From assembly GCA_005879505.1 (NCBI GenBank), contig VBKQ01000008.1, forward strand, positions 1 through 43,209: a stretch of 43,209 nt of DNA. Direction: 5' to 3'. The notes beneath the pieces were generated by a model. That model was not told the origin of the DNA and ran no database searches. It saw only the letters and a list, made by a program, of their open reading frames with translations. The DNA comes from Deltaproteobacteria bacterium. GTDB lineage: Bacteria; Myxococcota; Myxococcia; Myxococcales; 40CM-4-68-19. The translations under genes and the position numbers were made by a program. This document shows positions 9,687 through 43,183 of this stretch, in pieces (position 1 is the stretch's first letter; each line of letters opens with the position of its first letter).

Positions 9687-10745
9687 ATGCGCCCTCTCGC
9701 GCTGCTGCTCTGCGTCCTCGGGTGCGCAGAGTGGCGCATGCCGCCGACGTTTCCGGAGCGGGCTGCCGGGCGCCCGGTCGTGCACGAGCAAGCGCTGCTC
9801 GGGCTGTCGCCGCAGGGCGACGCCGCAGTGGCCGAGCTGGTGGAAGCCGACGGCAGCGAGCCCCACCTCGAATTGCGCATCTTCGCCGGCTTGGCCGGCT
9901 TGGGGACACAATACGCAACTCCTCATGCCAGCGCCGTTGGCACGGCGAGTTGCGTATTGTGTCCCCCGACCCTGCTCGTGGCTTCGATCGACCGGGCGCG
10001 GATCGTGGCGCAGAAGCTGCGATCGGTGGCGGGGCGGCCCCAGCCTGTCTTGGCGGCGATCGTTGCCGTCGAGTGGCCGGAGGCGATGTTGCGCGCGGCG
10101 CAGCTCGGGTATGCACCGCGCCTACCCGCGGAGCCGGAACCTGGGAGCGGGCTCTGGCACATCAGGGGAGCGGCCGGGGCCGGGGCGCTGCCGCTGGCGC
10201 TCCGCGTATCGCCGATGGCGGATCCGCCGGCGCTGCTGCTGCTGCTCTCCGATGGCCTCGGCGGTGACGGGATCGAGCTCGCCCGGGTCCTGATGACCGG
10301 CGACGTCGTGGGGCCGCAGCTCTTCCTCCAGGACGGCGTGGCGTGGCTGCTGGCGGGATCGGTGAGGGCGGACCCGTTGCGGCGTACGGTGGGTCTGCAC
10401 CGGGCAATGCTCGCGCGAGGCGAAGCGCAGCTGCACAACGCGCACGGGCTCGAGGATTACGCCGCTGGGGAGCTGGACGCGGCGCGCCGCGAGTTCGGCC
10501 GCTCCATCGCCGCGGACCCCTCGTATGTCGACGGTCTCTACAACGCGGCGGCGGCGGCCGCGCTCACCGGTCGCGCGGAAGAGGCCGTGGAGCTGCTCGC
10601 GCGCGCAGCGTCCGTCGATCCCGCGCGCGTGCAGGTCCTCGGGCGCAACGACCAGGACTTCAAGTCGCTTCGCCGCCGGCCAGACGTCCGCGCCCTTCTC
10701 GGGCTGAGAAGGCCGCCACCGGAGGGCATTCCTCCGCCACCCTGA
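9687..10745 (+). CDS. Putative lipoprotein with C-terminal TPR repeats, carrying an in-frame palindromic insert
   Basis: Has the signal peptide/lipobox MRPLALLLCVLGC. The C-terminus is TPR-like (YAAGELDAARREFGRSIAADPSYVDGLYNAAAAAALTGRAEEAVELL). GC3 is high on both sides of 9902-9966 in the same frame. Confidence 0.65.
   Translation: MRPLALLLCVLGCAEWRMPPTFPERAAGRPVVHEQALLGLSPQGDAAVAELVEADGSEPHLELRIFAGLAGLGTQYATPHASAVGTASCVLCPPTLLVASIDRARIVAQKLRSVAGRPQPVLAAIVAVEWPEAMLRAAQLGYAPRLPAEPEPGSGLWHIRGAAGAGALPLALRVSPMADPPALLLLLSDGLGGDGIELARVLMTGDVVGPQLFLQDGVAWLLAGSVRADPLRRTVGLHRAMLARGEAQLHNAHGLEDYAAGELDAARREFGRSIAADPSYVDGLYNAAAAAALTGRAEEAVELLARAASVDPARVQVLGRNDQDFKSLRRRPDVRALLGLRRPPPEGIPPPP
9902..9966. 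repeat. 65-bp hairpin element with perfect 20-bp inverted arms
   Basis: The left arm GGGGACACAATACGCAACTC (9902-9921) is the exact reverse complement of the right arm GAGTTGCGTATTGTGTCCCC (9947-9966). The 25-nt loop contains a nested TGCCA/TGGCA pair (9926-9930 and 9938-9942). It is preceded by the tandem 9-bp duplication GCCGGCTTG x2 (9885-9902). Confidence 0.9.
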
Positions 10746-10759
10746 GCGCCTCCCCTGCT

Positions 10760-11638
10760 ATGGTCCCGCCCCCGATGCCACCGCTGCTCCTCATCGCGGC
10801 GCTCCTCGCGCAGGCCGGGCTCTCGGAAGAACGCGCGCGCCAGATCCTCCCGCGCGCCGATCTGCGTGCCCTGACCGATCAGCAGCGCGCGCAGTTCCTC
10901 GAGGTCGCCGGCGATACCTTCGGATACGCCGGCTGCAACGACACGCTGGCGCGCTGCCTCGCCGCGAACGTGACCGACAAGCACGCGCCGCGCATGGCCG
11001 AGCTGGTCAAGGCGCTGCTGCTGGAAGGGTCGTCGACGTCCGCGGTCATCGACATGGTCGAGCGGTACTACGCGGGCTTCGCCAAGGAGAAGCGGCAGAA
11101 GCTGCTCGATCAGGACTGCGCACAGCTCGGCGAGGCGAAGGCGCCGGTCGCCATCGTCGAGTACTCCGACTACCAGTGTCCGCACTGCGCCTCGGCGGCG
11201 AAGCCGCTGAGCGAGACGGTGCGCGCGCTCCCCGGCAAGGTGCGCCTCTGCTTCAAGTACTTCCCGCTTCCCGGACATCCGCGCGCGCCGATCGCGTCGG
11301 CCTGCGCCGAGTACGCGCGGCAGCAGGGCAAGTTCTGGGAGATGAGCGATCTGCTGTTCACGCACCAGGAGGAGCTCGGCGACTCCGAGCTGAAGTCGTT
11401 CGCGCGGCAGCTCGGACTCGACGGCGACGCCATGCTGCGCCAGGCTTATGCGGGGCGATTCGACGCCGTCGTCGACCGGCACAAGAAAGAAGGCGTCGCC
11501 GCCGGCGTGCAGTCGACACCGACGGTGTTCTTCAATGGCCGGCAGTTCACGCTGCCGGTGAAGCTCGATTTTCTCGTCTTCTCCACGCAGGACGAGGACG
11601 AGTGGCAGCGGAACAAAGGCGGCTGGGACAAAGACTGA
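10760..11638 (+). CDS. DsbA-family thiol:disulfide oxidoreductase, secreted
   Basis: Has a signal-like N-terminus (MVPPPMPPLLLIAALLAQA) and the thioredoxin active site YSDYQCPHCA. An alternative ATG lies at 10775. Confidence 0.8.
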   Translation: MVPPPMPPLLLIAALLAQAGLSEERARQILPRADLRALTDQQRAQFLEVAGDTFGYAGCNDTLARCLAANVTDKHAPRMAELVKALLLEGSSTSAVIDMVERYYAGFAKEKRQKLLDQDCAQLGEAKAPVAIVEYSDYQCPHCASAAKPLSETVRALPGKVRLCFKYFPLPGHPRAPIASACAEYARQQGKFWEMSDLLFTHQEELGDSELKSFARQLGLDGDAMLRQAYAGRFDAVVDRHKKEGVAAGVQSTPTVFFNGRQFTLPVKLDFLVFSTQDEDEWQRNKGGWDKD

Positions 11639-11652
11639 GAGCTGTCGTCGAT

Positions 11653-14453: not shown

Positions 14454-15128
14454 CTACAGGCGGGCGCGGTGGAACTTCTCCAGCTCCGCGTTCGCGCGCG
14501 CGAGTGGTTCCAGCCGCGAGCTGACCGCCTGCAGCGCCGCCGCCGGGATCGCGACATAACCCTCGCCCTCCGCGAGCCCGGTGTAGACGCGATTGCCGGT
14601 GCACCCCAGGCTCACCGCTGGTCTGCGGGAGTCGAGCGCCTGCGGCAACGCCGCGCAGGTCGGCCGCCCCATCGCCGGCGCCTCGGGTGCGACGCCGGCG
14701 GACTGCGCGGCCTCGACGACCACCATCATCTGCGCCGTGGTCCCGCGGACGAGCACCAGATCCGGCGGGCAGGGCATCTTCGCGAGCGGAGCATAGACGG
14801 CGACCAGCAACGGCGCCTTGCGCTGCGGGATCGACTGCACCTCGTCCATCCGGACGTAGCCGAGCTCGACCATGGTCCCGACCAGTCCCATCAGCTCCTG
14901 CCGCTTGGCCTCGCTCATCTGCACGCCGTGCGTATGCGCGCCGATCGGGCAGCCCTGGTGATCGCCGGCGTCCGTCCAGAAGACATCGCCGTCGGCGGCG
15001 CGCTTCCAGTAGCTGCAACTGGCCGGCCCGGCGGCCGCATGCGGCACACCGTCCGGAGGCGAGTCGCGGAAGGCGATGCCCACGGCGGGCAGGGACAACT
15101 GCAGCGTCCGCTGGAAGATGTCGTCCAT
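14454..15128 (-). CDS. DUF169 domain protein
   Basis: Contains GIAFRDS..., SCSYWKRA, DHQGCPIGAHTHG and SLGCTGNRVYTGL, which is the typical DUF169 Cys pattern. Confidence 0.7.
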   Translation of the reverse strand: MDDIFQRTLQLSLPAVGIAFRDSPPDGVPHAAAGPASCSYWKRAADGDVFWTDAGDHQGCPIGAHTHGVQMSEAKRQELMGLVGTMVELGYVRMDEVQSIPQRKAPLLVAVYAPLAKMPCPPDLVLVRGTTAQMMVVVEAAQSAGVAPEAPAMGRPTCAALPQALDSRRPAVSLGCTGNRVYTGLAEGEGYVAIPAAALQAVSSRLEPLARANAELEKFHRARL

Positions 15129-15175
15129 GGCGCTGGACTACACCACTGCGGCACCGGTGGCCACCGCGAAGACCG

Positions 15176-18554: not shown

Positions 18555-19328
18555 GTGCGGCCGATGCGCCCGATCGTCCTGGTGTGCTTCGCGCTGGCGA
18601 TGGCCGCGTGCCCGGGCCGCGTCCAGTACCCGGAGTGCAAGACGGACGGGGACTGCGCGGAGCACGGACAGGTCTGCATCAACGGCTTCTGCAAGGAGTG
18701 CCGCGACGATTCCAACTGCGCCTCGCACCCCGACCGTCCGGTCTGCCGCGACGCGATCTGCGTGGCGAAGCCCCAATGCGCGAAGAACGAGGACTGCGGA
18801 CCGGGGATGAAGTGCGCTGAGGGCAGGTGCGCCCCGGAGTGCGCCTCCGACGCCGATTGCCCGGGCGGAGCCAGATGCTTGCAGGGCCGCTGCGCCGCGG
18901 AGGAGCGTTGCACGGGAGATGCGGACTGCCCGAAGGGAAAGGCCTGCGTCGACCGCGTCTGCAAGTCCCAGGAAGAAGCGAAGCGGATCGGCGATTGCAG
19001 CCTGAAACCGGTCTACTTCGGTTATGACGACGCTACCCTCTCGCCGGAGGCGCGCAAACTGCTCGATGACGCGTTCCAGTGCCTGCGCCGCGTGCAGTTC
19101 CGCAGGGTGGTGGTCGCCGGGCACACCGACGAGCGCGGCACCACCGAGTACAACCTCGCCCTCGGTGAGCGCCGCGCCGAGGCGGTCCGCCGCTACCTGG
19201 CCCAGCTCGGCGCCGAGCTGGGAAAGCTCAAGGCCATCAGCTATGGGAAGGAACGGCCCGCAAACCCTGGACATGACGAGGCGGCGTGGGCGAAGAACCG
19301 CCGCGCCGAGATCGCGCCGGAGCCCTGA
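18555..19328 (+). CDS. pal: Peptidoglycan-associated lipoprotein (OmpA-like) with N-terminal Cys-rich repeats
   Basis: Has the lipobox LAMAAC and five repeats of the DC..C...C..C type. The OmpA-like part contains VYFGYDDATLSPEA, GHTDERGTTEYNLALGERRA and NRRAEI. The start is GTG 18555 or ATG 18564. Confidence 0.85.
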   Translation: MRPMRPIVLVCFALAMAACPGRVQYPECKTDGDCAEHGQVCINGFCKECRDDSNCASHPDRPVCRDAICVAKPQCAKNEDCGPGMKCAEGRCAPECASDADCPGGARCLQGRCAAEERCTGDADCPKGKACVDRVCKSQEEAKRIGDCSLKPVYFGYDDATLSPEARKLLDDAFQCLRRVQFRRVVVAGHTDERGTTEYNLALGERRAEAVRRYLAQLGAELGKLKAISYGKERPANPGHDEAAWAKNRRAEIAPEP

Positions 19329-20557: not shown

Positions 20558-20561
20558 CGCT

Positions 20562-20593
20562 GTCGGACTGTACAGTCTAAAAGCAGTAGCCGC
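20562..20593 (-). promoter_or_regulatory. Conserved intergenic block (copy B) containing the perfect 12-bp palindrome GACTGTACAGTC
   Basis: The minus strand reads GCGGCTACTGCTTTTAGACTGTACAGTCCGAC. The palindrome is at 20566-20577, 8 nt upstream of the ATG at 20557. Confidence 0.45.
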
Positions 20594-20613
20594 TAAGCCG
20601 CCTTCGGCCGCGG

Positions 20614-27235: not shown

Positions 27236-28972
27236 ATGTCCTGCGTGCGCCTCGATCCGCATAGCTACGCCGACAGCGACCAACCGCAGACGCGCGCCAT
27301 CGACCTGGCGCTGCGCGCCGATTTCCAGCACCGCACGCTCGAGGGCGAGGTCACGCTGCGCTTCGGCGAGCCCGGCGGCGGGGCGATCGACCTCGACACC
27401 AGGGAGCTGCGCATCGAGGCGGTGACGGCGCTCGAGGGCGCGCCATTGCGCTACGAGCTCGCGGCGGGCGATCCGATCCTCGGAGCGCGGCTGCGCGTGA
27501 ACCTGCCGGACGGCGCGCGCGGGTTGCGCATCCGGTACGCCACCTCTCCCACGGCGAGCGCGCTGCAATGGCTCGAGCCGCCGCAGACGGCCGGCAAGGA
27601 GCCCTTCCTCTTCTCGCAATGCCAACCCATCCACGCGCGTTCCCTGGCACCGCTGCAGGACACGCCGCGCATCCGGATCACGGTAGGCCGCGCCCGGTTC
27701 AAGGTGCCTTCGCGGCTGCGAACGCTGATGGCGGCGGCTGCCAAGGGCCGCGAGGATGCCGGCAGCGGCGAGGCGGTGGACGTCTTCGAGATGCCTCAGC
27801 CGATTCCATCCTACCTGCTCGCCTTCGCGGTCGGCGACCTGCAGCAGCGGGAGCTTTCGGCCCGGACCGCCGTCTGGGCGGAGCGCGCCGTCGTGGACGC
27901 GGCGGCATACGAGTTCGCCGGGGCCGAGGAGATGATTCGCGCCGCGGAGCAGCTGTTCGGTCCCTACGAGTGGGACCGCTACGACATCCTGGTGATGCCG
28001 CCGAGCTTTCCCTACGGCGGCATGGAGAACCCGCGGCTCACCTTCGTGACCCCTTCGGTCCTCGCAGGCGACCGGTCGCTGGTGAGCGTGATCGCGCACG
28101 AAGCTGCGCACGCCTGGACGGGCAATCTCGTCACCAACGCGAATGCCAACCACTTCTGGCTGAACGAGGGTTTCACGGTATATGCCGAGCGACGGATCCT
28201 CGAGGCGCTCGAAGGTCGCGAAACGTCAGAGCTGCACGCCGCGGCCGGGCGGCACGACCTTCAGGTAACGTTGGAGCGCTTCGCCAACCGCCCTCAGCTC
28301 ACACACCTGCGCACCGATCTACGCGGGATCGATCCGGACGAAGCGTATTCGTCGGTTCCCTACGAGAAGGGATACCTGCTGCTGCGCAAGCTGGAGGAGA
28401 CGGCGGGACGCCCGGCCTGGGACGTCTTCCTGCGCTCCTACCTCGGGCGATTCCGGTTCCAGAGCATCACCACGGATCAGTTCCTCGGATTCCTCGAGGC
28501 GGAGCTTCCCGGAGTCGCCGCGCAGGCGGGGGCGTTGGAGTACATCGACGGGCCCGGAGTGCCCGAGGGTGCGCCCCAGTCGCGCTCCGCGCGTCTCGAG
28601 CAGCTCCGCCGCGGCGAGGTCGAGCCGCGCAACCCGACCGAGCTGCTCGTCGTCCTCCAGTCGGCGCCGGCCGATCCGGCGAAGTTGCGCGAGCTCGACG
28701 CCAGATGGGGTCTGTCGCAGCGGCGCAGCCTCGAGCTGCGGCACAACTTCGTGCTCCTGCAGATCCGCGCCGGCATGCCCGAAGCAGTGGAGGCAGCCCG
28801 CCGGGTCCTGCTGGAGACCGGCCGCATGCGGTACCTGCGGCCCATCTATACCGCGCTCGCCCGCCGCGATCCGGCGGCGGCGCGGCGCATCTATGGAGAG
28901 GCGCGCGCCGGGTACCACAACATCGCGCGCACCGTCGTCGAATCGATCCTGGACGAGCAGAGCGACAAGTAG
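27236..28972 (+). CDS. M1-family zinc aminopeptidase (leukotriene A4 hydrolase-like)
   Basis: Contains the GGMENP exopeptidase motif and HEAAHAWTGNLVTN..WLNEGFTVYAE (HExxH-X18-E). Confidence 0.9.
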   Translation: MSCVRLDPHSYADSDQPQTRAIDLALRADFQHRTLEGEVTLRFGEPGGGAIDLDTRELRIEAVTALEGAPLRYELAAGDPILGARLRVNLPDGARGLRIRYATSPTASALQWLEPPQTAGKEPFLFSQCQPIHARSLAPLQDTPRIRITVGRARFKVPSRLRTLMAAAAKGREDAGSGEAVDVFEMPQPIPSYLLAFAVGDLQQRELSARTAVWAERAVVDAAAYEFAGAEEMIRAAEQLFGPYEWDRYDILVMPPSFPYGGMENPRLTFVTPSVLAGDRSLVSVIAHEAAHAWTGNLVTNANANHFWLNEGFTVYAERRILEALEGRETSELHAAAGRHDLQVTLERFANRPQLTHLRTDLRGIDPDEAYSSVPYEKGYLLLRKLEETAGRPAWDVFLRSYLGRFRFQSITTDQFLGFLEAELPGVAAQAGALEYIDGPGVPEGAPQSRSARLEQLRRGEVEPRNPTELLVVLQSAPADPAKLRELDARWGLSQRRSLELRHNFVLLQIRAGMPEAVEAARRVLLETGRMRYLRPIYTALARRDPAAARRIYGEARAGYHNIARTVVESILDEQSDK

Positions 28973-29093
28973 GCTCGCTCTTCGAAGTCGTACACTGGAC
29001 TACAGAATGTGGCGTCGCCCACCTAGCCGCAGGGGGTAGGACACCACTGAACCACTAGATATCAGGCTGATTTTTTGTTCAGGCGGAGGTTGC

Positions 29094-29634: not shown

Positions 29635-29651
29635 ACGAGAGGGCATCGACG

Positions 29652-30062
29652 ATGGCGGACAAGTCTTTGCGAAACGGTGCAGTCCTGGCGCTCAAGCCGG
29701 CAGCGGTCCAACGGGTCGCGCGCTGGGAGGAGAGCGTCGCGACGGTGACGGTGCGCGGCGAGCTCGATCGCGAGGCGCTCTGGGCCATCGACTATTCCGT
29801 CGTGCGCGCCGCGGCGGAAGCGGGCCGCATCGTCCTCGATCTGCGCGAGGTCAGCCACCTCGACGGCTCGGCCGTGCCGGAGATCGTCGCGCGCCGGCGG
29901 GAGCTGCTCGCCCGCGGCGGCGATCTGGTGATCGCGGTGCGCAACCCCTACATCGCGAAGATCCTCAAGGCCGCCGGAGGACCCGATCTCGCCTTGGTCC
30001 GCTCGGTGGAGGAGGAGGCCGTCGCGGCTCCGGCCGCGCGGCTGCGTGCCCTGCGCAAATGA
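29652..30062 (+). CDS. STAS-domain protein (anti-sigma-factor-antagonist-like)
   Basis: It is 136 aa. [20 protein letters not shown]...[50 protein letters not shown] fits the SpoIIAA/STAS pattern. Its TGA overlaps the rsmH ATG (ATGA at 30059-30062). Confidence 0.65.
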
Positions 30063-30877
30063 ACGGATTCGCCCACCAGACCGTGCTGCGCCGCGAAACG
30101 GCCTCGCTGCTCGCCGCCGCTCCCGGGAGGGTCATCCTCGACGGGACCCTGGGCGGCGGCGGGCACGCGCAGGCGCTCCTCGACGCTGGCGCGCGGGTGG
30201 TGGGCCTCGATCAGGATCCGGCGGCGATCGCGGCGGCGCGCGCGCGCCTCTCGGGGCGCGACATCGTCGTTGCGCACGGCAACTTCCGCGATGCCCGCGC
30301 GCTGCTCGATCAGCTCGGTGTCTCCGAGGTGGACGGTGCGCTCGTCGATCTGGGCGTCTCCTCGCCCCAGCTCGACGATCCCTCGCGCGGCTTCTCCTTC
30401 CGCGCAGGTGGACCGCTCGACATGAGGATGGATCCGACGCGGGGACGGCCGCTGCGCGAGCTTCTCGACGAGTGGGACGAGAAGGCGCTGGCGCGGATCC
30501 TCGAGTCGCTCGGCGAGGAGCGGTTTGCCCGTCCAATCGCGCGCGCGATCCACAGAGCGTGGGCCGGCGAGGGGATCGCGGACACGCGCGAGCTGGCGGA
30601 GATCATTTCCGCCGCGATCCCGCGCAAGGCCTGGCCGCGCGACATCCATCCGGCGACCCGCTCGTTCCAGGCGTTGCGGATCGCGGTCAACGACGAGCTG
30701 GGAGCGCTGGGCGACTGGCTGGCGCAGCTTCCCCGGCTGGTGGCGCGCGGTGGCCGCGCGGCGGCGATCTCATTTCATTCGCTGACGAAGAAGCCGGTGG
30801 GCGCCGCGGAGGAGGAGATCTCGGCCAACCCGCGGGCCCGGAGCGCGCGGTTGCGCGCCGTGGAGCGGCTCTCATGA
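30059..30877 (+). CDS. rsmH: 16S rRNA (cytosine1402-N4)-methyltransferase RsmH, with an apparent in-frame internal deletion
   Basis: Contains [32 protein letters not shown] and [18 protein letters not shown]. After ISFHSL (to 30784) the near-universal EDRIVK... segment is absent, and the sequence resumes at [23 protein letters not shown]. Confidence 0.85.
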
Positions 30878-31224
30878 GGCATGGGCGCAGCGCCGTCCGG
30901 CGGGGCATCGAGCGCCGGGCCCTGAACGACTTCGCGGCGGTCACGCTCTCGTGCCTCCTGATCGCCGTTGCGATGCTGCTGCACGCGTGGGTCCGCACGC
31001 GCGTGACGGAACGCGGATACGCGCTCGCGCGGCTCTCCGCCGAGTACCGCGAGCTCGCGCGGGAGCACGAAAGGCTCCAGATCGCGGCCGCCGAGCTGAA
31101 GAGCCCGCAGCGGATCGAGGAGCTCGCGCGCACCCGCTTGAACATGGCGCCGCCCCCGGTCGACCGCGTCGTCGTCCTGGTCGGGGGGGCCGTCCGGCCG
31201 TCGGTCCTGACCGCATCGAGGTGA
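30874..31224 (+). CDS. ftsL: Cell division protein FtsL
   Basis: It is a small bitopic protein with one TM helix ([16 protein letters not shown]) followed by a coiled-coil and ...[12 protein letters not shown]. The ATG overlaps the rsmH stop. Confidence 0.8.
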
Positions 31225-31231
31225 ACCGGTC

Positions 31232-33229
31232 GTGAGGCGCTCCTGCGCACCGCAGCGGGACGGCAAGTGGATGCGCCTTCGCGCCTTCCTGCTCGGGGCC
31301 GCCCTGCTCGCGCTGTTCGGAGTCGTGCTCCTGCGCGCCGCTAAAGTGCAACTCCTCGATCGGTCGCGCCTGGCGAGGCTGCAGCGGGACCAGACCCGCA
31401 GGGAGCTGGAGTGGGTGCCCCGCCGGGGAATGATCGTCGATCGGCGCGGAGAACCGCTGGCGGTGACCCAGGATGTCGACTCGGTATTTGCCGATCCTTC
31501 GGCGTTCGAAACGCCACGCGCGCGCCAGATGGCCGCGGCACGGATCGCGGGCGCGCTGCGCCTCGATCGTGCGAGGGTCCTGGAGAAGCTCTCGCAGCCC
31601 GACCGGCGGTTCGTCTGGATCAAGCGGCGCATCGACGAAGCTTCGGCCCAGCGCGTTCGCGGGCTGGCCATCGACGGAATCGAACTGGCCAAGGAACCGA
31701 AGCGCTTTTATCCCCAGCGCGACCTCGCCGGTCACGTGCTCGGATTCGTGGGAGAAGAGAGCGGACAGGAGGGGCTGGAGCGCGAGCTCGATCAGCATTT
31801 GCGGGGGCGGAGCGTGCAGGTCCAGGCGACGCGAGACGCGCGCGGGACCATGGTCCTCGAGCACGGCGCGCCGGACCCCGCCGATCTGACCGGGGCCACG
31901 GTCACGCTTACACTGGATAGCGCGATCCAGCTCGCTGCCGAGAAGGAGCTGGCCAGGGCCGTGAAAGCCTCCGGCGCGATCGGAGGCTGGGCCGTGGTGC
32001 TCGACGTGAACACGGGCGCCGTGCTCGCGCTCGCGGGGAATCCCGCGTTCGACGCGAACAAGCCAGGACGCGACCCGATGATCTGGCGCGATCGCGCGGT
32101 CCAGGACCAGCTCGAGCCCGGCTCGACCATCAAGAGCTTCGTGCTCGCCCGCGCGCTCGAGGAAGGCGTCGTCCAGCCGGACGAGCTCCTCTATTGCGAG
32201 CACGGCGTCTGGATGCATGCGGGCAGGAAAATCCACGACACGCACCCGGTGGACTGGGCGACGCCGGCGGCGATCCTGCGGGAATCCTCCAACATCTGCG
32301 CGGCGAAAATCGGCGAGAAGTTAGGCAGGCAGAGATTGATCGAGGGCCTGCGCGCGTTCGGGTTCGGCGAAAGGACCGGGGTGGGCCTTCCCGGCGAGGC
32401 CCGCGGGGCGCTGGCGGATCCGCGGCGGATGCCGCAGATCGCCCTCTCGACCACGGCGTTCGGTCAGGGGATGAGCGCCACGGCGATGCAGACGGTAGCG
32501 GCGATGGCCGCCATCGCCAACGGGGGCGTGCTGCTGCGGCCTTTCCTCGTGCAGAAGGTCGTTGCCGCCGATGGGACGACGCTGCTCTCCCGCGGGCGAG
32601 AGGAGGTGCGCCGCGTCCTCAAGGAAGACACCGCGCGCGAGCTGACGGCGATGCTGGAGGAGGTGGTGGAGAAGGGCACCGGCACCCGTGCGGGGCTCCT
32701 CGGCCACCGCGTCGCGGGCAAGACGGGGACGGCGCAGAAGGTCGATCCGATCCGGGGCGGCTACAGCGACAAGCGGCTCGCGAGCTTCCTCGGATTCGCG
32801 CCGGCGGACGCGCCCCGGATCGCGATCCTGGTGGTCATCGACGAGCCCGAAGGAAAGGGCGCGGAAGTGGCGGGCGGGACGGTGGCTGCGCCGGCGTGGG
32901 GCGCCATCGCACACGAGGCCCTGCGCCAGCTCGACGTCATGCCCGACCAGGCGAGAGAGACTGCACCCCTCCTGGTATCGTCAGTGGGCTCCGGCGCCGG
33001 GGACGAGGTCGCGCACGAGCCGGCGGCGGAGCCGCCGATCCAGCCGGGGCGGGCGCGCGTTCCGGACGTCTCCGGCCTCGGCGCGCGCTCGGCGATGCGC
33101 CGGCTTGCGCAGTCGTCGCTGGAGCCGGAGCTCCGCGGCAGCGGCCGGGCAGTCGCGCAGTCCCCGCGCGCCGGGGCCATTGTCAAGCGGGGGGCAAGGG
33201 TGAAGGTCACTCTGGCGCCGCCGGGGTAG
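31232..33229 (+). CDS. ftsI: Peptidoglycan D,D-transpeptidase FtsI (class B PBP) with a C-terminal PASTA domain
   Basis: Contains STIKS, SSN and KTGTA. The C-terminal VPDVSGLGARSAMRRLAQSSLEPELRGSGRAVAQSPRAGAIVKRGARVKVTL is PASTA-like. The start is GTG 31232 or ATG 31271. Confidence 0.9.
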   Translation: MRRSCAPQRDGKWMRLRAFLLGAALLALFGVVLLRAAKVQLLDRSRLARLQRDQTRRELEWVPRRGMIVDRRGEPLAVTQDVDSVFADPSAFETPRARQMAAARIAGALRLDRARVLEKLSQPDRRFVWIKRRIDEASAQRVRGLAIDGIELAKEPKRFYPQRDLAGHVLGFVGEESGQEGLERELDQHLRGRSVQVQATRDARGTMVLEHGAPDPADLTGATVTLTLDSAIQLAAEKELARAVKASGAIGGWAVVLDVNTGAVLALAGNPAFDANKPGRDPMIWRDRAVQDQLEPGSTIKSFVLARALEEGVVQPDELLYCEHGVWMHAGRKIHDTHPVDWATPAAILRESSNICAAKIGEKLGRQRLIEGLRAFGFGERTGVGLPGEARGALADPRRMPQIALSTTAFGQGMSATAMQTVAAMAAIANGGVLLRPFLVQKVVAADGTTLLSRGREEVRRVLKEDTARELTAMLEEVVEKGTGTRAGLLGHRVAGKTGTAQKVDPIRGGYSDKRLASFLGFAPADAPRIAILVVIDEPEGKGAEVAGGTVAAPAWGAIAHEALRQLDVMPDQARETAPLLVSSVGSGAGDEVAHEPAAEPPIQPGRARVPDVSGLGARSAMRRLAQSSLEPELRGSGRAVAQSPRAGAIVKRGARVKVTLAPPG

Positions 33230-33246
33230 CCGTCGTATTCGGGAGG

Positions 33247-34788
33247 ATGGAGACGAGTCCGGGGGTTGGAGGAAGCGTGTTGCTGCAGGATCTGTTCGCG
33301 GGCGTGGACGCCGAGGTGCCGGCCGGAGCGGCGCGGGTGGACGTGCGCGCGCTCGCGGTCGACTCGCGGCGGGTGGGGCCCGGCTCGCTGTTCGCCGCGC
33401 TCGCGGGCCTGAACGCCGACGGCACCGACTTCGCGGTCCAGGCCGTGGAGCAGGGCGCGGCGGCGGTGCTCGCGGGCCGCCCGCTACAGCTGAAGGCGCC
33501 GGTCGTGGTCGCCAGCAATCCGCGCCGCGCCTTCTCGCTCGCCGCCGCCCGCTTTCACGGAGAGCCGTCGCGGCGGCTCTCGCTCTTCGGCGTGACGGGT
33601 ACGAACGGCAAGACGACGACGGCGTACCTGATCGAGCAGATCTCCGCGGCCCGCGGAGTGGCGACGGGCTTGATCGGCACGGTCGAGTCGCGCTGGCCGG
33701 GCGGCCGGATGGCGGCCACGCACACCACGCCGGAATCGCACGAGCTGCAGGAGCTGCTGCGGCGGATGGCGGACGCCGGCGCGCAGGTGGTCGCGATCGA
33801 GGTATCGAGCCACGCCCTCAGCCAGGAGCGCGCCGCGGGCTGCGTCTTCTCCGGCGCGGCATTCACCAACCTGACGCGCGATCACCTCGACTATCACGGC
33901 TCGCTCGATGCGTACTTCGACGCGAAAGCGAAGCTGTTTCGCGAGTTGCTTCCCCGCGGGGTCCCGGCGGTGCTCAACTTCGACGACCCACGCGTCGCCG
34001 CGCTGGCGGGCGAGCTGCCGTTCGCGCTCGGGTTCACCGTTCGTGGAGCTGCCGGCGCGGCTCTGTTTGCGGAGCGGGTGCGCAGCGACCTGCGCGGCGT
34101 GCGCTTCCAACTCCGCACGGCCGCGCCGCTCGATGATGCGCTGGCGGAAGTGGAGAGCCCCCTGATCGGGGCGCACAACGTGGAGAACCTGCTCGCCGCC
34201 ATCGGTGTACTGGCCGGCAGCGGCGTTCCCTTGCGCGACGTGGTGCGCGTGATTCCGGAATGCCCCGGCGCGCCCGGACGCCTGGAACGCGTGCCAGATC
34301 GCGCAGGCCGTGTCGTGCTCGTCGACTACGCGCACACCGACGACGCGCTCGCTCGCGTCCTCGATGCCTTGCGCCAGGCCGCCGCGCCGCGCATCGTCTG
34401 CGTATTCGGCTGCGGGGGCGATCGCGACCGCGGCAAACGTCCGCTGATGGGAGAAGCGGCCGGCGCGCGCGCCGATCTGGTCATCGCGACCAGCGACAAT
34501 CCGCGCACCGAGGACCCGCTGGCGATTCTCGCCGCGATCGAGCCCGGCCTCGTGCGCAGCGGCAAGGCCAGGCTCGATCCCCGTCATGCGCGCATGGGCC
34601 TCGACGGATACTGCGTGGTGCCCGATCGGAGCGAGGCCATCGCGCTCGCCTTGCGTTGCGCCCGGCCCGGCGACGCGGTCCTTCTGGCGGGAAAGGGGCA
34701 CGAGGACTACCAGATCGTCGGAACCGAGAAGCGGCCGTTCGACGATCGGCTGGAGGCCCGCCGCGCCCTCGAGGAGATCTCGCGTTGA
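33247..34788 (+). CDS. murE: UDP-MurNAc-L-Ala-D-Glu--2,6-diaminopimelate ligase
   Basis: Contains GVTGTNGKTTT, TNLTRDHLDYHG, DYAHTDDAL and SDNPRTEDP. An alternative GTG start at 33277 lies after GGAGGA. Confidence 0.92.
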   Translation: METSPGVGGSVLLQDLFAGVDAEVPAGAARVDVRALAVDSRRVGPGSLFAALAGLNADGTDFAVQAVEQGAAAVLAGRPLQLKAPVVVASNPRRAFSLAAARFHGEPSRRLSLFGVTGTNGKTTTAYLIEQISAARGVATGLIGTVESRWPGGRMAATHTTPESHELQELLRRMADAGAQVVAIEVSSHALSQERAAGCVFSGAAFTNLTRDHLDYHGSLDAYFDAKAKLFRELLPRGVPAVLNFDDPRVAALAGELPFALGFTVRGAAGAALFAERVRSDLRGVRFQLRTAAPLDDALAEVESPLIGAHNVENLLAAIGVLAGSGVPLRDVVRVIPECPGAPGRLERVPDRAGRVVLVDYAHTDDALARVLDALRQAAAPRIVCVFGCGGDRDRGKRPLMGEAAGARADLVIATSDNPRTEDPLAILAAIEPGLVRSGKARLDPRHARMGLDGYCVVPDRSEAIALALRCARPGDAVLLAGKGHEDYQIVGTEKRPFDDRLEARRALEEISR

Positions 34789-36227
34789 GCGCGCGCTTCA
34801 CGGCCGAGCAGGTCGCCTGGACCGCGGGAGCGCGGATCGCCGTGCCCGGAGGGCCCTTCAAGGGTGTTTTCACGGATTCGCGAACGCCGGTAAAGCGCGG
34901 GCTCTTCGTGGCGCTGCGCGGGCCGACCTTCGACGGCAGCGACTTCGTCGCCCAGGCGGTGCAGGGCGGCGCTGCGGGCGCGCTGGTGCCCTCCGACGCG
35001 ATCGAAAAGGTGAAGCCGCAGGCGGCGCGCGCCGCGCTCTTGACCGTGCCCGACACCGGACGTGCGCTGGGCAATCTCGCCGCCGGGTGGCGACGCCAGC
35101 TGACCGGGCTCGAGCTCGTCTGCATTACCGGGTCCACCGGAAAGACCAGCACGAAGGAGCTGATCGCGGAGGTGCTCGCGGCCGCGGGTCCCACGCTGAA
35201 GACCGAAGGCAACCTCAACAACGAGGTTGGAGTTCCACTCACGTTGCTGCGCCTGTCGGAGCAGCACCGGTACGCCGCCATCGAATGCGGGATGAACCAC
35301 CTCGGCGAGATCGCGCGGCTCGCGCAATGGTCCGATCCGGACGTCGGGCTGGTCACCAACATCACCCCCGTACACCTCGAGGGATGCGGGTCGATCGAGG
35401 GCGTCGCCCACGCCAAGGGCGAGCTCTTCCATGCGCTGCGCGACACCGCCACCGCCGTGGCGAACTCGGACGACGCCCGCGTGCTCGCGCAGGCCAGGCT
35501 GTCGCGGCGCAAGCTGGTGACCTTCGGCGCTGCGTTCGGCAGCGACGTCCGCCTGATCTCCGCCCATCACGGCGGCCCGGGCCTGCGCGTCGAGCTGGAG
35601 TTCGGCGGCGCGCGGAGGATGGCGGAGCTGAAGCTGATCGGCACGCACAATGGCTACAACGCCGCCGCGGCGGCAGCAGTGGGCGTGGCCCTCGGGCTCG
35701 ACGCGGAGATCATCCTCCGCGGGCTCGCGAATGCCACCACACCGGGCCGGCGGATGCGCCCGGTGCGGATGCCCAACGGCGCGCTGCTCATCGACGATTG
35801 CTACAACGCGAATCCCGCCAGCACCAAGGCGGCGCTGCTCACGCTCACCCACCTGGTGCGCGGAAAGGGACGGGCCATCGCCGTCCTCGGCGACATGCTG
35901 GAGCTCGGCCACACCGAGCTCGATCTGCACCGCGACGTCGGGCGATTCGCCGCGGGCGCGGGGCTCTCGCTGCTGGTCTGTTTCGGGGAGCGTGCCAAGG
36001 CGCTCGGCGAAGGAGCGCAGGAGGCGGGGCTGAAGGCGGAGTCCATCGAGTACAGCGCGGATCCCGCGGAAGCCGTGCGCCTGGTGCAGGCGCGGGTCCG
36101 GCCCGAGGACGTGGTGCTGGTCAAGGGATCGCGCGGGATGAAGATGGAGCGCGTGAGCGACGCGCTCGCCGAGGCAACCGGCTCCGCCGGCGAGGGACAG
36201 AAGGCGAATCCGACGGGAGGGACGTGA
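34785..36227 (+). CDS. murF: UDP-MurNAc-tripeptide--D-Ala-D-Ala ligase
   Basis: The TTG at 34785 overlaps the murE stop (TTGA). The protein contains ITGSTGKTSTKE, NLNNEVGVPLTLL and DDCYNANPAS. Confidence 0.9.
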   Translation: MSARFTAEQVAWTAGARIAVPGGPFKGVFTDSRTPVKRGLFVALRGPTFDGSDFVAQAVQGGAAGALVPSDAIEKVKPQAARAALLTVPDTGRALGNLAAGWRRQLTGLELVCITGSTGKTSTKELIAEVLAAAGPTLKTEGNLNNEVGVPLTLLRLSEQHRYAAIECGMNHLGEIARLAQWSDPDVGLVTNITPVHLEGCGSIEGVAHAKGELFHALRDTATAVANSDDARVLAQARLSRRKLVTFGAAFGSDVRLISAHHGGPGLRVELEFGGARRMAELKLIGTHNGYNAAAAAAVGVALGLDAEIILRGLANATTPGRRMRPVRMPNGALLIDDCYNANPASTKAALLTLTHLVRGKGRAIAVLGDMLELGHTELDLHRDVGRFAAGAGLSLLVCFGERAKALGEGAQEAGLKAESIEYSADPAEAVRLVQARVRPEDVVLVKGSRGMKMERVSDALAEATGSAGEGQKANPTGGT

Positions 36228-37342
36228 TGCTCTACAACCTCCTGTTCCCCTTCTCCGACCGCGTCCCGCTCTTCAACGTGCTGCGGTATCCCTCGTTCCG
36301 CATGCTGATGGCGGGGCTGGTCTCGCTGGTGATCGGCCTCTTCCTCGGCCCGAGCTACATCGACGCGCTGCGCAGGCTGCAGCACGGGGCGAGCAACGTG
36401 CGCGAGGACACGCCGGAGGCGCATCAACGGAAGGTCGGAACGCCTTCGATGGGTGGAGGCCTCATCCTCTGGGCGATGCTGGTGGGAACGCTGCTCTTCG
36501 CCGACCTGACGAACCGCATGGTCTGGGCCGCGCTGATCATCACGCTCGGCTTCGGCGCGATCGGATTCGCCGACGATTGGCTCAAGTTCAGCAAGCGCAA
36601 CTCCAAGGGGCTGGCCGGACGCAAGAAGCTGCTCTGGCAGACGATCATCTTCGTGGTGGTGGTGGCCGTCTTCTTCGTCGACTGGAAGCACGGCTCGCTC
36701 TATCTGGACACCCGCCTCGCCATCCCCTTCGTGAAGGTGAAGGCGTTCAATCCCGTCCTGCCCTGGTGGATCTACCTGCCCTTCGCCTTCGTGGTGATCG
36801 TCGGGACATCGAACGCGGTGAACCTGACCGACGGGCTCGACGGCCTCGCCATCGGTCCCACCATCGTCAGCGCGCTGACCTTCATGCTCCTCGCCTATCT
36901 CGCGGGAGCCACCATCCGAGGGCTCAACATCGCCGACTACCTGCTGATCCCGCACATCCCGGGCGCGGCGGAGCTGGCGGTGTTCTGCGCCGCCATGGCC
37001 GGAGCCGGCATCAGTTTCCTCTGGTTCAACACCTATCCGGCGACCGTGTTCATGGGCGACGTGGGATCGCTCGCCCTCGGCGGCGGCCTCGGCGCGCTCG
37101 CGGTGCTGACGAAGAACGAGGTCGACAGCGCCATCATCCACGGAGTCTTCTTCGCCGAGATCGTCTCGGTGATGCTGCAGGTGCTCTGGTTCAAGCGCAC
37201 CGGCCGCCGGATCTTCCGCATGGCTCCCATCCACCACCACTTCGAGCTGCAGGGCTGGACGGAGCCGAAGATCATCGTCCGCTTCTGGATCGTCTCCATC
37301 ATCCTGGCGCTGACCGCGCTGGCGTCGCTGAAGCTGAGATGA
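36227..37342 (+). CDS. mraY: Phospho-N-acetylmuramoyl-pentapeptide transferase
   Basis: Contains KVGTPSMGG, NAVNLTDGLDGLA and APIHHHFE. The ATG shares 1 nt with the murF TGA. Confidence 0.93.
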   Translation: MLYNLLFPFSDRVPLFNVLRYPSFRMLMAGLVSLVIGLFLGPSYIDALRRLQHGASNVREDTPEAHQRKVGTPSMGGGLILWAMLVGTLLFADLTNRMVWAALIITLGFGAIGFADDWLKFSKRNSKGLAGRKKLLWQTIIFVVVVAVFFVDWKHGSLYLDTRLAIPFVKVKAFNPVLPWWIYLPFAFVVIVGTSNAVNLTDGLDGLAIGPTIVSALTFMLLAYLAGATIRGLNIADYLLIPHIPGAAELAVFCAAMAGAGISFLWFNTYPATVFMGDVGSLALGGGLGALAVLTKNEVDSAIIHGVFFAEIVSVMLQVLWFKRTGRRIFRMAPIHHHFELQGWTEPKIIVRFWIVSIILALTALASLKLR

Positions 37343-38473
37343 ACCTCTCCGGACGACACGCCCTCGTGGTGGGCCTGGGCAAGAGCGGCGAGGCCGCCGC
37401 CCGCCTGCTTCGTTCGCGCGGCGCGCAGGTCGTAGCGGCGGACGACAAGGAGCTGCCGTTCGAGGGCGAGCTCAGGCGCGTGGCTCCGGAGTCCTTGCGC
37501 GGGATCGATCTGGTGGTGGCGAGCCCCGGCGTTCCGCTCTCGCTCCCCATCTTCATCGAGGCGCGCTCGCGTCGGATCGAGTTGATCGGGGAGGTGGAGC
37601 TGGCTTCCCGCTTCATCTCCGAGCCGATCTTCGGGATCACGGGCACCAACGGGAAGAGCACCACCACCGCGCTCTGCGGCCACCTCCTCTCCACGGCCGG
37701 ATTGCGCGTCTTCACCGGCGGAAATCTGGGCGACGCCTTGAGCAACCGCGTGCTCGCGGGCGATCGGCTCGACGCCACGGTCTGCGAGCTGTCGAGCTAC
37801 CAGCTCGAGTCGATCGTTTCGCTGCGCTGCGCGGCGGCAACGGTCCTCAACGTCACGCCGGATCACCTCGATCGGTATCCCTCGCTCGACGCCTACGCGG
37901 CGGCGAAGCAGCGCATCTTCGAGAACCAGCGCGCAGGCGACACCGCCGCGATCAACCCACAACCGCGAGAACGCGTTCGCCGCCTGCCTGCTGGCGCGGC
38001 ACCTCGGCGTCGGCTTCGATGCGCTGCAGAAGGGTCTCGACAGCTACCCGGGGCTGCCCCACCGCCTGGAGCCGGTCCGCGTGCTCGACGGGGTGGAGTG
38101 GATCAACGACTCCAAGGCGACGAACGTGGACAGCGTGGAGAAGTCGCTGAGCGCGTTCGAGGGCAACGTCCACATCATCATGGGCGGTCGCGGCAAGGGC
38201 GCACCCTATGCGCCGCTGCGCGAATTGATGCGCGGGCGGGTGAAGACGATCTTCACGATCGGCGAGGACGCCAAGGCGATCGCCTCCGAGCTGTCCGGGG
38301 CGGCGGAGATCGAGCCCTGTGGCGTGCTCGCAACCGCTGTGTTCCAGGCGCGCAAGCGCGCCCGGCGCGGTGACGTGGTGCTGCTCTCGCCCGCCTGCGC
38401 CTCCTACGATCAGTTCCGCAACTTCGAAGACCGGGGCGATCAGTTCAAGGCCCTCGTGCGGGGGCTCTCGTGA
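37339..38473 (+). pseudogene. murD: murD (UDP-MurNAc-L-Ala--D-Glu ligase) disrupted by an internal deletion plus a frameshift near 37956/37958
   Basis: The N-part (frame of 37339) has GLGKSG, GITGTNGKSTT, NVTPDHLDRY and RIFENQRAGDTAAIN. The C-part is in a different frame from 37958 and has HNRENAFAACLLARHLGV, PGLPHRLE, WINDSKATN and SPACASYDQF. The segment normally between ..N(A)DD.. and ..G.HN.. is absent; it is about 55 aa in E. coli MurD as I recall it. Confidence 0.8.
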
Positions 38474-39568
38474 GCGCGTCGGCCGTCGCCGGAGCGCGCG
38501 TGGCCCGCCAGCGGGCAGAGCAGCTGCGGCCGGTGCTGCGCTACGACCCGGTGCTGCTCGCGGCCGTGCTGCTGCTCCTCGCCTTCGGCGTCGTCATGGT
38601 CTACAGCGCGAGCGCGGTCTACGCCGGCGCGCGCCTGGGCGACCCGCTCTGGTTCCTCAAGCGGCAGGCCGCGGCGGCCCTGGTCGGGCTCGTCGCGTTG
38701 CTCGGCGCGATGAGGCTCGGCTACCGCCGCCTGGAGGCGCTCGTCGTTCCCCTGGTGTTCGTCTCGCTCGCGCTGCTCCTCTGCGTGCACGTGCCCGGGC
38801 TCGGTCATAGCGCGGGCGGCGCGACGCGCTGGCTACGGATCGGCCCGCTGACCTGCCAGCCCAGCGAGCTGGCGAAGATCGCGCTGGTACTCTGGCTCGC
38901 GCGCTCGCTGGCGAAGAAGCAGGACCGCATCCGTTTCTTCTCGGTGGGGGTCTTGCCTCATCTCACGGTGCTGGCGATCTTCGCTCTGTTCTTGATGCTC
39001 GAGCCGGACTTCGGAACGACCGCCGTCCTCGGCGGCGTCTCTTTCGCGGAAGTCTCCGTACCGCATCCAGCGCATCCTCGCCTTCCTCGATCCCTGGAAG
39101 GATCCGAGGGGACACGGCTACCAGACCGTGGAATCGCTCCTGGCGTTCGGGGCCGGCGGCTCGTTCGGCGTCGGACTGGGAGAAAGCCACCAGAAGCTGT
39201 TCTTCCTTCCCGCAGCGCACACCGACTTCATCCTCAGCATCGTCGGCGAGGAGCTGGGGTTCGCGGGCGTGGCGGCGGTGCTGGTGCTCTTTGCGGCGGT
39301 CGTCTGGCGCGGGATCCGCGCGGCGTACTGCGCGGCGGACGCCTTCGGATGCTGGGCGGCGCTCGGGTTGACCCTTCTGCTCGGGGTGGAAGCGCTGGTG
39401 AACGCGGGGATGGCGCTCGCGCTGCTTCCCACCAAGGGGATGGCGCTGCCGTTCCTCTCCTACGGGATGTCGTCGGTGATCGCCTCCTGCATCGCGGCCG
39501 GCATCCTGCTCTCCGTCAGCGGCGGCCCCGGTGGCTTCCTCCGCCGGGCCTCGGGAGCACAGCGATGA
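38470..39568 (+). pseudogene. ftsW: ftsW (SEDS peptidoglycan polymerase) disrupted by an internal deletion plus a frameshift near 39046-39050
   Basis: The N-part (frame of 38470) runs to ...QPSELAKIALVLW...EPDFGTTAVLGGVSFA. The C-part is in another frame and reads KSPYRIQRILAFLDPWKDPRGHGYQ...AAHTDFI...LPTKGMALPFLSYG. About one TM segment is missing between them. The frameshift is why the track shows a 742-aa ftsW-murG fusion ORF. Confidence 0.8.
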
Positions 39569-40698
39569 GGCTCCTCGTCGCAGGCGGCGGCACCGGTGGC
39601 CATCTCTTCCCCGGCCTGGCGCTGGGGGAAGAGGTGAAGACCCGCCATCCGCGCAACGACGTGCTGTTCGTCGGATCGGCGCGGGGGATCGAGGCGCGCG
39701 AGGTGCCGAAGGCGGGATATCCGCTGGAGATCATCGACGTCGGTCCGCTCAAGCGGATCGGCCTGCTCGGTTTCCTCATGGGCCTGTTTCGCCTTCCTCG
39801 CGCCTTCTGGCAATCGATGAAGGTCCTGCGGAAGTTCGATCCCGACGTGGTGATCGGCGTCGGCGGCTACTCGAGCGGGCCGGTGCTCCTCGTCGCCTGC
39901 CTGATGCGCAAGCCCACCGCGATCCAGGAGCAGAACGCCCTTCCCGGGTTCACCAACCGTACGCTGGGGCATTTCGTCGACGCCGTGTTCATCGCCTTTC
40001 CGCAGGCGGGGCGCGCGTTTGCCCCCCGCAAGACGCATCTGCTCGGCAACCCGATCCGCCGCGCGTTCCTCGACAACTACCTGCATACCAAGCCGGCGAC
40101 GGACCGGCTGAGCATCTTGGTGACCGGCGGATCTCAAGGAGCCCACCCCCTCAACCTGCGCGTGGCGGAGGCGCTGGAGATCCTCGGCCCGCAGATCGGC
40201 CCCCGCGTCCAGGTCCTGCACCAGACGGGCAGCAAGGACCAGCCGGAGATCGCGGCGCGGTACGAAAAGCTCCAGTCGACGGGCCTGGCCGTCCAGGCCG
40301 TCGCATTCATCGACGACATGGCGCGCGCGTACGCGGGCGCGGACCTCCTGGTCTGCCGGGCGGGGGCCACCACCATCGCGGAGCTGACCGTCTGCAAGAA
40401 GCCGGCGATCCTGGTGCCTTTCCCGTTTGCCGCCGACGACCACCAGACCGTCAACGCGCAGAGCCTGGTCGAGGCGGGGGCCGCGCTGCTGATGCCGGAA
40501 AAGGACCTGACGGCGCAAAAGCTCGCCGACGCCGTCCGGGGGTTGGAAGGCGACCGCTCGAGGCTGCAGCGCATGGCCCGGGCGAGCGGGGTCCTGGGGC
40601 GGCCGGAGGCGGCCCGGGAGATCGCGGACGTCTGCGTTTCACTCTGCAGGGACCGTCTGGTCCGGGAGGGGAGGCACCTGCCGCCGGCACCGAGATGA
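39565..40698 (+). CDS. murG: UDP-GlcNAc--undecaprenyl-PP-MurNAc-pentapeptide GlcNAc transferase
   Basis: Contains MRLLVAGGGTGGHLFPGLAL, GGYSSGP and TGGSQGA. The ATG at 39565 overlaps the stop of the ftsW C-part (ATGA). Confidence 0.92.
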   Translation: MRLLVAGGGTGGHLFPGLALGEEVKTRHPRNDVLFVGSARGIEAREVPKAGYPLEIIDVGPLKRIGLLGFLMGLFRLPRAFWQSMKVLRKFDPDVVIGVGGYSSGPVLLVACLMRKPTAIQEQNALPGFTNRTLGHFVDAVFIAFPQAGRAFAPRKTHLLGNPIRRAFLDNYLHTKPATDRLSILVTGGSQGAHPLNLRVAEALEILGPQIGPRVQVLHQTGSKDQPEIAARYEKLQSTGLAVQAVAFIDDMARAYAGADLLVCRAGATTIAELTVCKKPAILVPFPFAADDHQTVNAQSLVEAGAALLMPEKDLTAQKLADAVRGLEGDRSRLQRMARASGVLGRPEAAREIADVCVSLCRDRLVREGRHLPPAPR

Positions 40699-40717
40699 AT
40701 CCACCCAAGCTCAGCTA

Positions 40718-40747
40718 TTGATTATCGTAGATCGAATCGAGTACATT
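40718..40747 (+). promoter_or_regulatory. Candidate internal promoter upstream of murC
   Basis: TTGATT (40718-40723), an 18-nt spacer, then TACATT (40742-40747). It lies in the only sizeable, AT-richer gap inside the cluster (40699-40775). GAGGAGAGGGG precedes GTG 40776. Confidence 0.4.
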
Positions 40748-40775
40748 CGCGTTACATGAGGAGAGGGGCGCCACC

Positions 40776-42149
40776 GTGTTTCGCAACAAGAAGGTCAAGG
40801 TCCACTTCGTGGGGATCGGAGGGATCGGCATGAGCGGCATCGCCGAGCTCCTGCTGAACCTCGGCTACCGGGTGAGCGGATCGGACCTGAAGGAGAGCGA
40901 CATCACCAAGCGCCTGGCCTCGCTCGGTGGCAGCGTCGTCGCCGGGCACCGCGCCGAGAACGTGGCGGCAGACGTGGACGTGGTGGTGACCTCCAGCGCC
41001 GTCCGCAAGAACAACCCGGAAGTGGTGGCGGCGAAGGACCGCGGCATTCCCGTGATTCCGCGAGCCGAGATGCTCGCGGAGCTGATGCGCCTCAAGGAGG
41101 GAGTCGCCATCGCCGGATCGCACGGCAAGACCACCACCACTTCGCTGATCGCGACCGTGCTGGCACACGCGAAGCTCGACCCGACGGCGGTGGTGGGCGG
41201 CAAGCTCAACGCGCTCGGTTCGAATGCCAAGCTCGGCAAGGGCCAGCTGATGGTGGTGGAGGCGGACGAGAGCGACGGATCCTTCCTCCGGCTGTCGCCG
41301 GCGATCGCGGTGATCACCAACGTCGATCCGGAGCACCTCGATTACTACGGGACGGTCGAGGCGCTGCAGCAGGCCTTCGTCGACTTCGCCGACCGGGTGC
41401 CGTTCTACGGGCTCGCGGTGCTCTGCGTCGACCATCCGGTCGTGCAGCACCTCATCCCGCGCATCGGAAAGCGGCACACCACTTACGGCCTCTCGCCCCA
41501 GGCCGAGTGGCGCGCGGACGACATCCGGCACGCGCCCTTCCAGTCGCGGTTCATGGTCTCGCACAAGGGCAAGCAGGAGGGGGAGGTGACGCTGCGGATG
41601 GTGGGCGCGCACAACGTCCTCAACGCGCTCGCCTGCTGCGCCGTGTCGCACGAGCTGGGGATTCCCTTCAAGGTGACCGCGGAGGCGTTGGGCGATTTCG
41701 CGGGCGTCCAGCGCCGATTCACCGTGCGCGGCGAGGTCAACGGCATCACCGTGGTGGACGATTACGGGCACCACCCCGCGGAGATCCGGGCAACGCTCGC
41801 CGGCGCGCGCGCCAGTTTTCCCCAGCGGCGGATCGTCTGCGCCTTCCAGCCCCACCGGTACACCCGCACCCGCGATCTACTGGGCGAGTTCGCGACCGCC
41901 TTCAACGACGCCGATTCGCTGCTGCTCACCGAAGTGTACGCGGCCAGCGAGGATCCGATCCCCGGTGTCACCGGGGCAAAGCTGCACGAGGCCGTGAAGG
42001 CGTGCGGCCACCGGGACGCGGCCTTTGCAGAGCGCGCCGAGCTGGCGCGCAGGCTTCGCGAGAAGGTGCGCCCGGGGGACCTGGTGATCACCCTCGGCGC
42101 GGGCGACATCACGCACGTCGGCGAAGAGCTGCTGGGGTTGCTCGGGTGA
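40776..42149 (+). CDS. murC: UDP-N-acetylmuramate--L-alanine ligase
   Basis: Contains [36 protein letters not shown] and [10 protein letters not shown]. Confidence 0.93.
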
Positions 42150-43183
42150 CCGGGCTGATCGCCGAACTGCGCCGCGCAGCGCGCGGCGAGGTGATCGAGC
42201 AAGCGCCGCTGGCGCCGCGCACCAGCGTGCGCGTGGGCGGGCCGGCGAAGCTGCTGGTGAGGCCGAGCGATCCGCGCGCGCTGGTCGATCTCCTCGGGGT
42301 CCTCCGAGGCGCCGCCGTTCCCTGGCTCTCGCTGGGCGGGGGAGCGAACACCATCGTCGGCGACCTGGGCGTGAACGGGGCAGTCATCCGTCTCGGTCAG
42401 GACTTCGCGGCGGAAGAAGTGGAAGAAGGCGGCGACCATGTCGTGCTCACGTTGGGCGCCGGCGCTCCCATCGCCCGCTTCCTCTCGCTCGCCAGGGACC
42501 AGCGCGGCATCGGCGTCGCCTGGGTGGCGGGGATCCCGGGCACCGTCGGCGGCCTCGTGGCGATGAATGCCGGCACTCCGGCCGGGTGCATGGCGGATCA
42601 CCTCCTCGCCGCGGAGGTCGCCTCTCCCGATGGGCTGCGCTGGGTCGACGCAGCGGATCTGCATCTCGCTTACCGCCACTGCGAGCTTCCGCCCGGCTCC
42701 ATCCTCACGCGGGCACGCTGCAGGGTCCGGCGCGGTTCGGAAGGCGATCTGATCGAGCAGCAGCGCGTGGCCAAGGCGGACGTCGATCGGCGCCGCGCCA
42801 CGCAGCCGCTCAACCTCCCGAACTCGGGTTCGGTGTTCGTCAACCCGCCGGGCGACTTCGCCGGGCGCCTGATCGAGCAGGCCGGGCTGAAGGGAACCAC
42901 CCTCGGCGGCGCGCAGATCAGCGATCGCCACGCGAATTTCATCGTCAACCTGGGAAGGGCCAAGGCGGCGGACGTGGTCGAGCTGATCGCGCTGGCCCGG
43001 CGGACGGTGCTCGAGCGAACCGGGATCGAGCTGAAGCCCGAAGTGCGGCTGGTCGGCGATTTCGAGCCGCCGCTGCCGTCCGAGCTGCAGCCGCATCGCC
43101 TGAAGCCCCTGCTGCCGGGCGCAGAAGTGCCGGCGGTCGAGATGCCGGATCGGACGAAGTCCTGCCTTCGGGTGCAACCATGA
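42146..43183 (+). CDS. murB: UDP-N-acetylenolpyruvoylglucosamine reductase, with a C-terminal extension of about 45 aa
   Basis: The GTG at 42146 overlaps the murC stop (GTGA). The protein contains [27 protein letters not shown] and [10 protein letters not shown]. Confidence 0.88.

Follow-up and report, generated by a model that had tools for sequence, protein, structure and literature searches.

We have analyzed a 43,209-nt stretch of DNA, referred to here as the window, corresponding to positions 1 to 43,209 of contig VBKQ01000008.1 in assembly GCA_005879505.1, a Deltaproteobacteria bacterium placed in the Myxococcales. The G+C content of the window is 69.7%, and its + strand encodes a cluster of cell-division and cell-wall (dcw) genes. 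Upstream, the genes follow in the order CarD, acyl-CoA dehydrogenase, trehalose phosphatase, peptidase M1, mraZ, STAS and rsmH, the same context as observed at the intact loci of relatives (L180, L182). The small STAS-domain gene (29650-30062), which is anti-sigma-factor-antagonist-like, lies between mraZ and rsmH inside the dcw cluster and is kept at this position in all relatives of the clade (L083 2231-2650). Exact protein matches to MraY (TMB14949.1), FtsI (TMB14946.1) and MurB (TMB14951.1) are present in one deposited MAG contig, whose length of 43,209 nt is that of the window, as are matches to two altered products described below. No exact match was found among gene positions for either MraY or the frameshifted murD open reading frame and, among the matches listed from GTDB representative genomes, the best match to MraY is only 65% identical.

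The murD gene, coding for UDP-N-acetylmuramoyl-L-alanine--D-glutamate ligase, is broken in this record. Translation from the ATG at 37339 yields the MurD N-terminus, MNLSGRHALVVGLGKSG...AAKQRIFENQRAGDTAAIN, followed by Arg/Pro-rich nonsense, while the frame one base forward, from 37958, reads HNRENAFAACLLARHLGV...PGLPHRLE...WINDSKATN...LVRGLS* to a stop at 38473 which overlaps the GTG start of ftsW at 38470. The 5' part (37339..37957, + strand) comprises 206 in-frame codons ending ...DTAAIN plus the C at 37957, which in intact murD alleles opens the following codon (CAG, Gln). At the junction (37957..37958, + strand; ...ATCAACC / CACAACC...) 128 nt found in every relative are absent, and the 3' part (37958..38473, + strand), HNRENAF...LVRGLS*, continues in the +1 frame. 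The gene consequently measures 1135 nt in the window compared with 1263 nt when intact. The sequence-only reading of this DNA had described an internal deletion of about 55 codons together with a frame change at ATCAAC-C-CACAAC, the authentic frame resuming at 37958 and running to a normal C-terminus that overlaps the ftsW start. The break, the resumed frame and the overlap are all seen in the translation, and the deletion itself is also borne out by the profile comparisons given below, but its size was overestimated, as DNA alignment with the closest relatives gives a missing piece of exactly 128 nt, one base short of 43 codons. The prediction that the missing length must be congruent to 2 mod 3 was correct for this value. 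At the protein level, 43 residues are absent between AAIN and HNRENAF, aligning as QADPRVRAMKTN.GVRRQ.FD.REPLRIEGT.L.LRAPTLRGS in the closest proteins, which originate from soil Myxococcota MAGs and metagenomes and in which MurD is about 420 aa long.

Both murD fragments are unambiguous MurD sequence, ∼92% identical in aligned residues to the 420-aa soil Myxococcota MurD, and differ from known MurD in that 43 central-domain residues are gone and the C-terminal domain is out of frame. Against TIGR01087, the NCBIfam MurD profile, the N part aligns with positions 2-214 and the C part with positions 272-440. The two parts are therefore not contiguous, profile positions 215-271 being absent. The fragments score 191.1 and 195 bits, both below the cut-off of 211.95, and no single continuous protein spans the profile above this curated cut-off. 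Pfam similarly assigns MurD-like_N and a truncated Mur_ligase_M (positions 1-122 of 200) to the N part and Mur_ligase_C, in a different frame from these two domains, to the C part. As recorded, murD cannot give rise to a functional ligase.

A second unexplained frame switch was found within ftsW in a plot of third-position G+C. The ftsW 5' part (38470..39048, + strand) consists of 193 codons ending ...LEPDFGTTAVLGGVSFA and covers positions 4-164 only of the FTSW_RODA_SPOVE profile. The junction (39048..39049, + strand) lacks 83 nt, shows a microhomology of 1 nt (G) and brings a +1 frame shift, and the 3' part, SPYRIQRILAFLDPW...GAQR* (39050..39568, + strand), follows in the +1 frame with a switch in GC3 phase. 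The length of ftsW is 1099 nt in the window in comparison with 1182 nt for the intact gene, and FtsW of the relatives is 393 aa long. From the ftsW start, a 742-aa open frame (38470..40698, + strand) runs through the FtsW N part, an out-of-frame read-through and MurG. This FtsW/MurG chimera was deposited under the name 'MurG' (TMB14950.1), the true murG occupying 39565-40698 and coding for 377 aa. TMB14950.1 and the MurB entry, TMB14951.1, bear consecutive accession numbers, so the deposited annotation may give MurC another start or no protein entry at all; the exact MurC of the window (40776-42149) is recorded from ENA contigs only.

The third lesion lies in rsmH (30059..30877, + strand), which codes for 272 aa here in comparison with 308 aa in all relatives. 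An in-frame loss of 108 nt, equal to 36 codons, is located at 30782/30783, where the microhomology amounts to 2 nt (CT), and the segment lost is the conserved EDRMVK...C.CP...C.C stretch. The deletion was not found in six relatives that are 95-98% identical to the window (L180, L181, L183-L186), and the shortened RsmH was deposited as TMB14944.1.

The junctions were compared with respect to length, placement and occurrence elsewhere. The lesions in rsmH, murD and ftsW measure 108, 128 and 83 nt and show microhomologies of 2, 0 and 1 nt, respectively, and two of the three break the reading frame, the outcome that random placement gives. As expected of mis-joins, several like lesions are present on one contig, regardless of reading frame or repeats. 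An exact search of metagenome contigs returned no match to the murD junction, the frameshifted murD product was absent from the protein collections searched by exact look-up, and the same type of look-up found the 272-aa RsmH and the 742-aa fused frame only from this contig. Hairpin-driven deletion was considered and rejected, as the deleted segments fold no better than expected (z-scores -0.6, -0.7 and -1.4). No repeat suggesting a biological deletion mechanism was detected in the deleted segments, and extreme base composition was likewise rejected, their GC being 0.70-0.76. Strain diversity in the deleted segments is ∼1.7 times that of the surrounding gene, a value derived from four sequences and suggestive at most. 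The three lesions span 8.3 kb of the 43-kb contig; by our own calculation, three random events would fall this close together in ∼10% of cases, and the clustering is not compelling.

Intact alleles of the interrupted genes are present in sister assemblies. Ten ENA contigs, assembled from sister samples and bearing names of the form CRIT18-1_SAMN089028xx, carry the exact MurC of the window. One of these scaffolds, L171, matches the window at 99.34% identity over 30987-37957 and at 99.38% over 39048-42414. Relative to the window, it has just two indels, murD being longer by 128 nt and ftsW by 83 nt. The indel pattern of L170 and L172 is the same, and all three scaffolds encode a MurD of 420 aa, an FtsW of 393 aa and a MurC identical to that of the window. 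The missing sequence is thus present in independent assemblies of the same population, between flanks that are collinear and near-identical, as is expected if the window contains mis-joins. The sequence-only reading had held murE, murF, mraY, murG, murC and murB to be intact, and the absence of indels with respect to L171 and the exact protein matches agree with this. Its implication of an organism with a dead, essential murD is unsupported, as near-identical independent scaffolds encode full-length MurD; L170, L171 and L172 provide, in effect, other sequencing in which murD is uninterrupted. That reading also overlooked the like lesions at ftsW and rsmH on the same contig, and the repetition of the murD lesion in these genes points to the construction of the contig rather than to selection acting on this gene.

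Comparison with L171 revealed no sign of decay in what is left of murD and ftsW: extra stops, small indels and an excess of non-synonymous change were not found. Over ∼2,100 nt around the murD junction, a single position separates the window from L171, and the 206 codons preceding this junction have the same nucleotide sequence as the intact L171 murD. The murD 3' part differs by 12 synonymous and 4 non-synonymous codons, and the ftsW remains by 4 synonymous and 2 non-synonymous differences. Neither the relaxed selection nor the reproducible lesion expected of a genuine pseudogene is therefore observed, the remains being conserved as above and no other contig or protein record having any of the junctions. 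A chimera of strains at the junctions was rejected, as the window remains ∼100% identical to L171 on either side of the murD junction. The sole divergent patch, 300 nt at 38137-38436 in the murD 3' part, lies away from both the murD and the ftsW junctions. It differs from L171 and L172 at 19 positions and from L170 at 23, most of the changes being synonymous, and the surrounding 2 kb is nearly identical; the patch could be a small strain recombination patch or a piece assembled from another strain.

Because intact alleles occur in near-identical independent assemblies, the lesions are unique and decay is absent, the lesions in murD, ftsW and rsmH are most likely three local mis-joins in the assembly. 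At each site, two adjacent assembled pieces would have been joined end to end, with the loss of ∼80-130 nt present in the real population. Between two contigs, a short stretch lacking coverage may have been reduced to zero length, either by the scaffolder, through a mis-estimated or negative gap, or by a repair step. Contigs may be trimmed or abutted by the IDBA scaffolder if it estimates a gap of zero or less. The outcome would be what looks like a deletion, its end points placed at random and its effect on the reading frame equally so.

Sister scaffolds carry runs of Ns within the same cluster. These are observed in murF of L170 (83 Ns at 3888-3970 and 10 at 4445-4454), in murB of L173 (100 Ns at 3204-3303, which stand for 403 real bases) and in ftsI and murF of L185 (100 Ns each at 2899-2998 and 6596-6695). 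The presence of such runs in ftsI, murF and murB indicates that the cluster repeatedly failed to assemble cleanly. We take the accession series of the record to be that of a soil study published by Diamond and colleagues in 2019. From this series, the naming of the record and its near-identity to the CRIT18-1_SAMN089028xx scaffolds, the source is probably the Angelo grassland soil study (Diamond et al. 2019, PMC6784897), although no accession common to the contig and this study was found. In that study, reads were trimmed to 200 nt, scaffolds were assembled per sample with IDBA-UD (k 30 to 200), and scaffolding errors were corrected after binning by a procedure described earlier (PMC6784897). 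The Banfield-lab procedure, ra2.py, detects errors as regions of zero coverage and re-assembles the local reads with Velvet; otherwise, Ns are inserted or the scaffold is broken (PMC5079060). All three lesion lengths (83, 108 and 128 nt) are below the 200-nt reads of the probable source study. The lesions resemble the scaffolding and gap-closure errors of short-read metagenomes assembled with IDBA-UD in being short, below read length and located where assembled pieces meet, and also in their random end points, their absence from independent assemblies and the N gaps in the sister cluster. They differ from the scaffolding errors targeted by ra2.py in that the window joins contain no Ns and survived the repair step, an N-free direct join not being what this procedure should leave (PMC5079060).

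Other origins of the lesions were weighed against assembly mis-joins. Real, recent deletions of 128 nt in murD, 83 nt in ftsW and 108 nt in rsmH, arising for example through end-joining repair in cells not yet purged or surviving in another manner, are improbable. The junctions are present in the deposited record and their 0-2 nt of microhomology is compatible with non-homologous end joining, which myxobacteria possess, but neither the junctions nor their protein products occur in any other assembly and the identity of the flanks to intact sister-sample alleles reaches 100%, indicating that any lineage with real deletions would be extremely young. In favour of real deletions, the lesions affect one gene cluster of related function (30.8-39.1 kb). 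Against them, real deletions would require that murD and ftsW, both normally essential, were frameshifted simultaneously in a lineage not otherwise distinguishable from intact strains, and that three independent deletions of similar size occurred in one haplotype of an otherwise undamaged contig, which is itself improbable. That a soil Myxococcota strain truly carries the murD and ftsW frameshifts and the rsmH deletion, having recently become wall-deficient or division-defective and persisting, for example, in an L-form-like or cross-fed state, is very unlikely. Were the deletions true, this would be a free-living bacterium having just lost two essential envelope genes, and the evidence is against this. 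Wall-reduced or host-dependent bacteria carry genuine frameshifted pseudogenes of cell-wall genes, which are similar to the present case in that murD and ftsW are interrupted and no full-length protein is encoded; unlike these, the window is without accompanying decay, its neighbouring mur genes are intact, its flanks are identical to functional alleles and its lesions occur in no relative.

It is scarcely conceivable that the contig holds a decaying, redundant second dcw cluster, with intact murD and ftsW elsewhere in the genome, and nothing in favour of this was found. The upstream context shared with the intact loci of L180 and L182 indicates that the window represents the canonical dcw locus and, in addition, the other cluster genes are intact and the murD and ftsW remains show no relaxed selection. 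There is also only a slim chance that the joins derive, not from scaffolding, but from molecules that are real yet artificial (chimeric or jumped library fragments, for instance) or from a low-coverage consensus. Such molecules would also yield random end points without microhomology, but each of the three would have to win the consensus. This origin leads to the same conclusion as assembly mis-joins, namely that the lesions are not biology.

The broken murD is thus most likely an ordinary assembly artefact that has produced misleading annotations. The record serves as a caution, as three silent mis-joins would account for a murD without a matching protein among those searched, the shortened RsmH, TMB14944.1, and the chimera, TMB14950.1. 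Artefacts of this type can be mistaken for lost cell-wall synthesis, raise pseudogene counts in MAGs and seed databases with false fusions.

The remainder of the contig was also compared with relatives. Over 3653-11647, the window is 99.8% identical to L190 with only one 1-nt difference, at 8056, which was rejected as a lesion, being upstream of a conserved start codon. A stretch of ∼470 nt missing at 6950 with respect to L106 and L092 was likewise rejected, as it is also missing in the 99.8%-identical L190 and represents natural variation. Between 9.8 and 30 kb, comparison with L090, L091, L100, L106, L182 and L180 showed nothing beyond natural variation, in the form of whole genes present or absent and of in-frame length differences. 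Sites of whole-gene gain or loss among close relatives correspond to window positions 14454-15137, 18555-19328 and 28964-28992. A DUF169 gene found in the window, and in part in L106, is missing from L090, L091 and L092. L092 also lacks an OmpA-family gene, and a formamidase (FmdA_AmdA) gene found in L083-L086 is absent from the window. An extra 45-51 nt at 20561-20612 was rejected as a lesion, being intergenic. This segment, absent from all relatives compared (L182, L090, L106 and L092), lies between two minus-strand genes and is relatively AT-rich, containing the near-palindrome GGACTGTACAGTCT with a TAGCCGC...GCGGCTA stem. At the left end of the contig, a gene for an Eco57I-type N6-adenine DNA methylase (779-2302) adjoins an RmuC-family gene (2251-3597).
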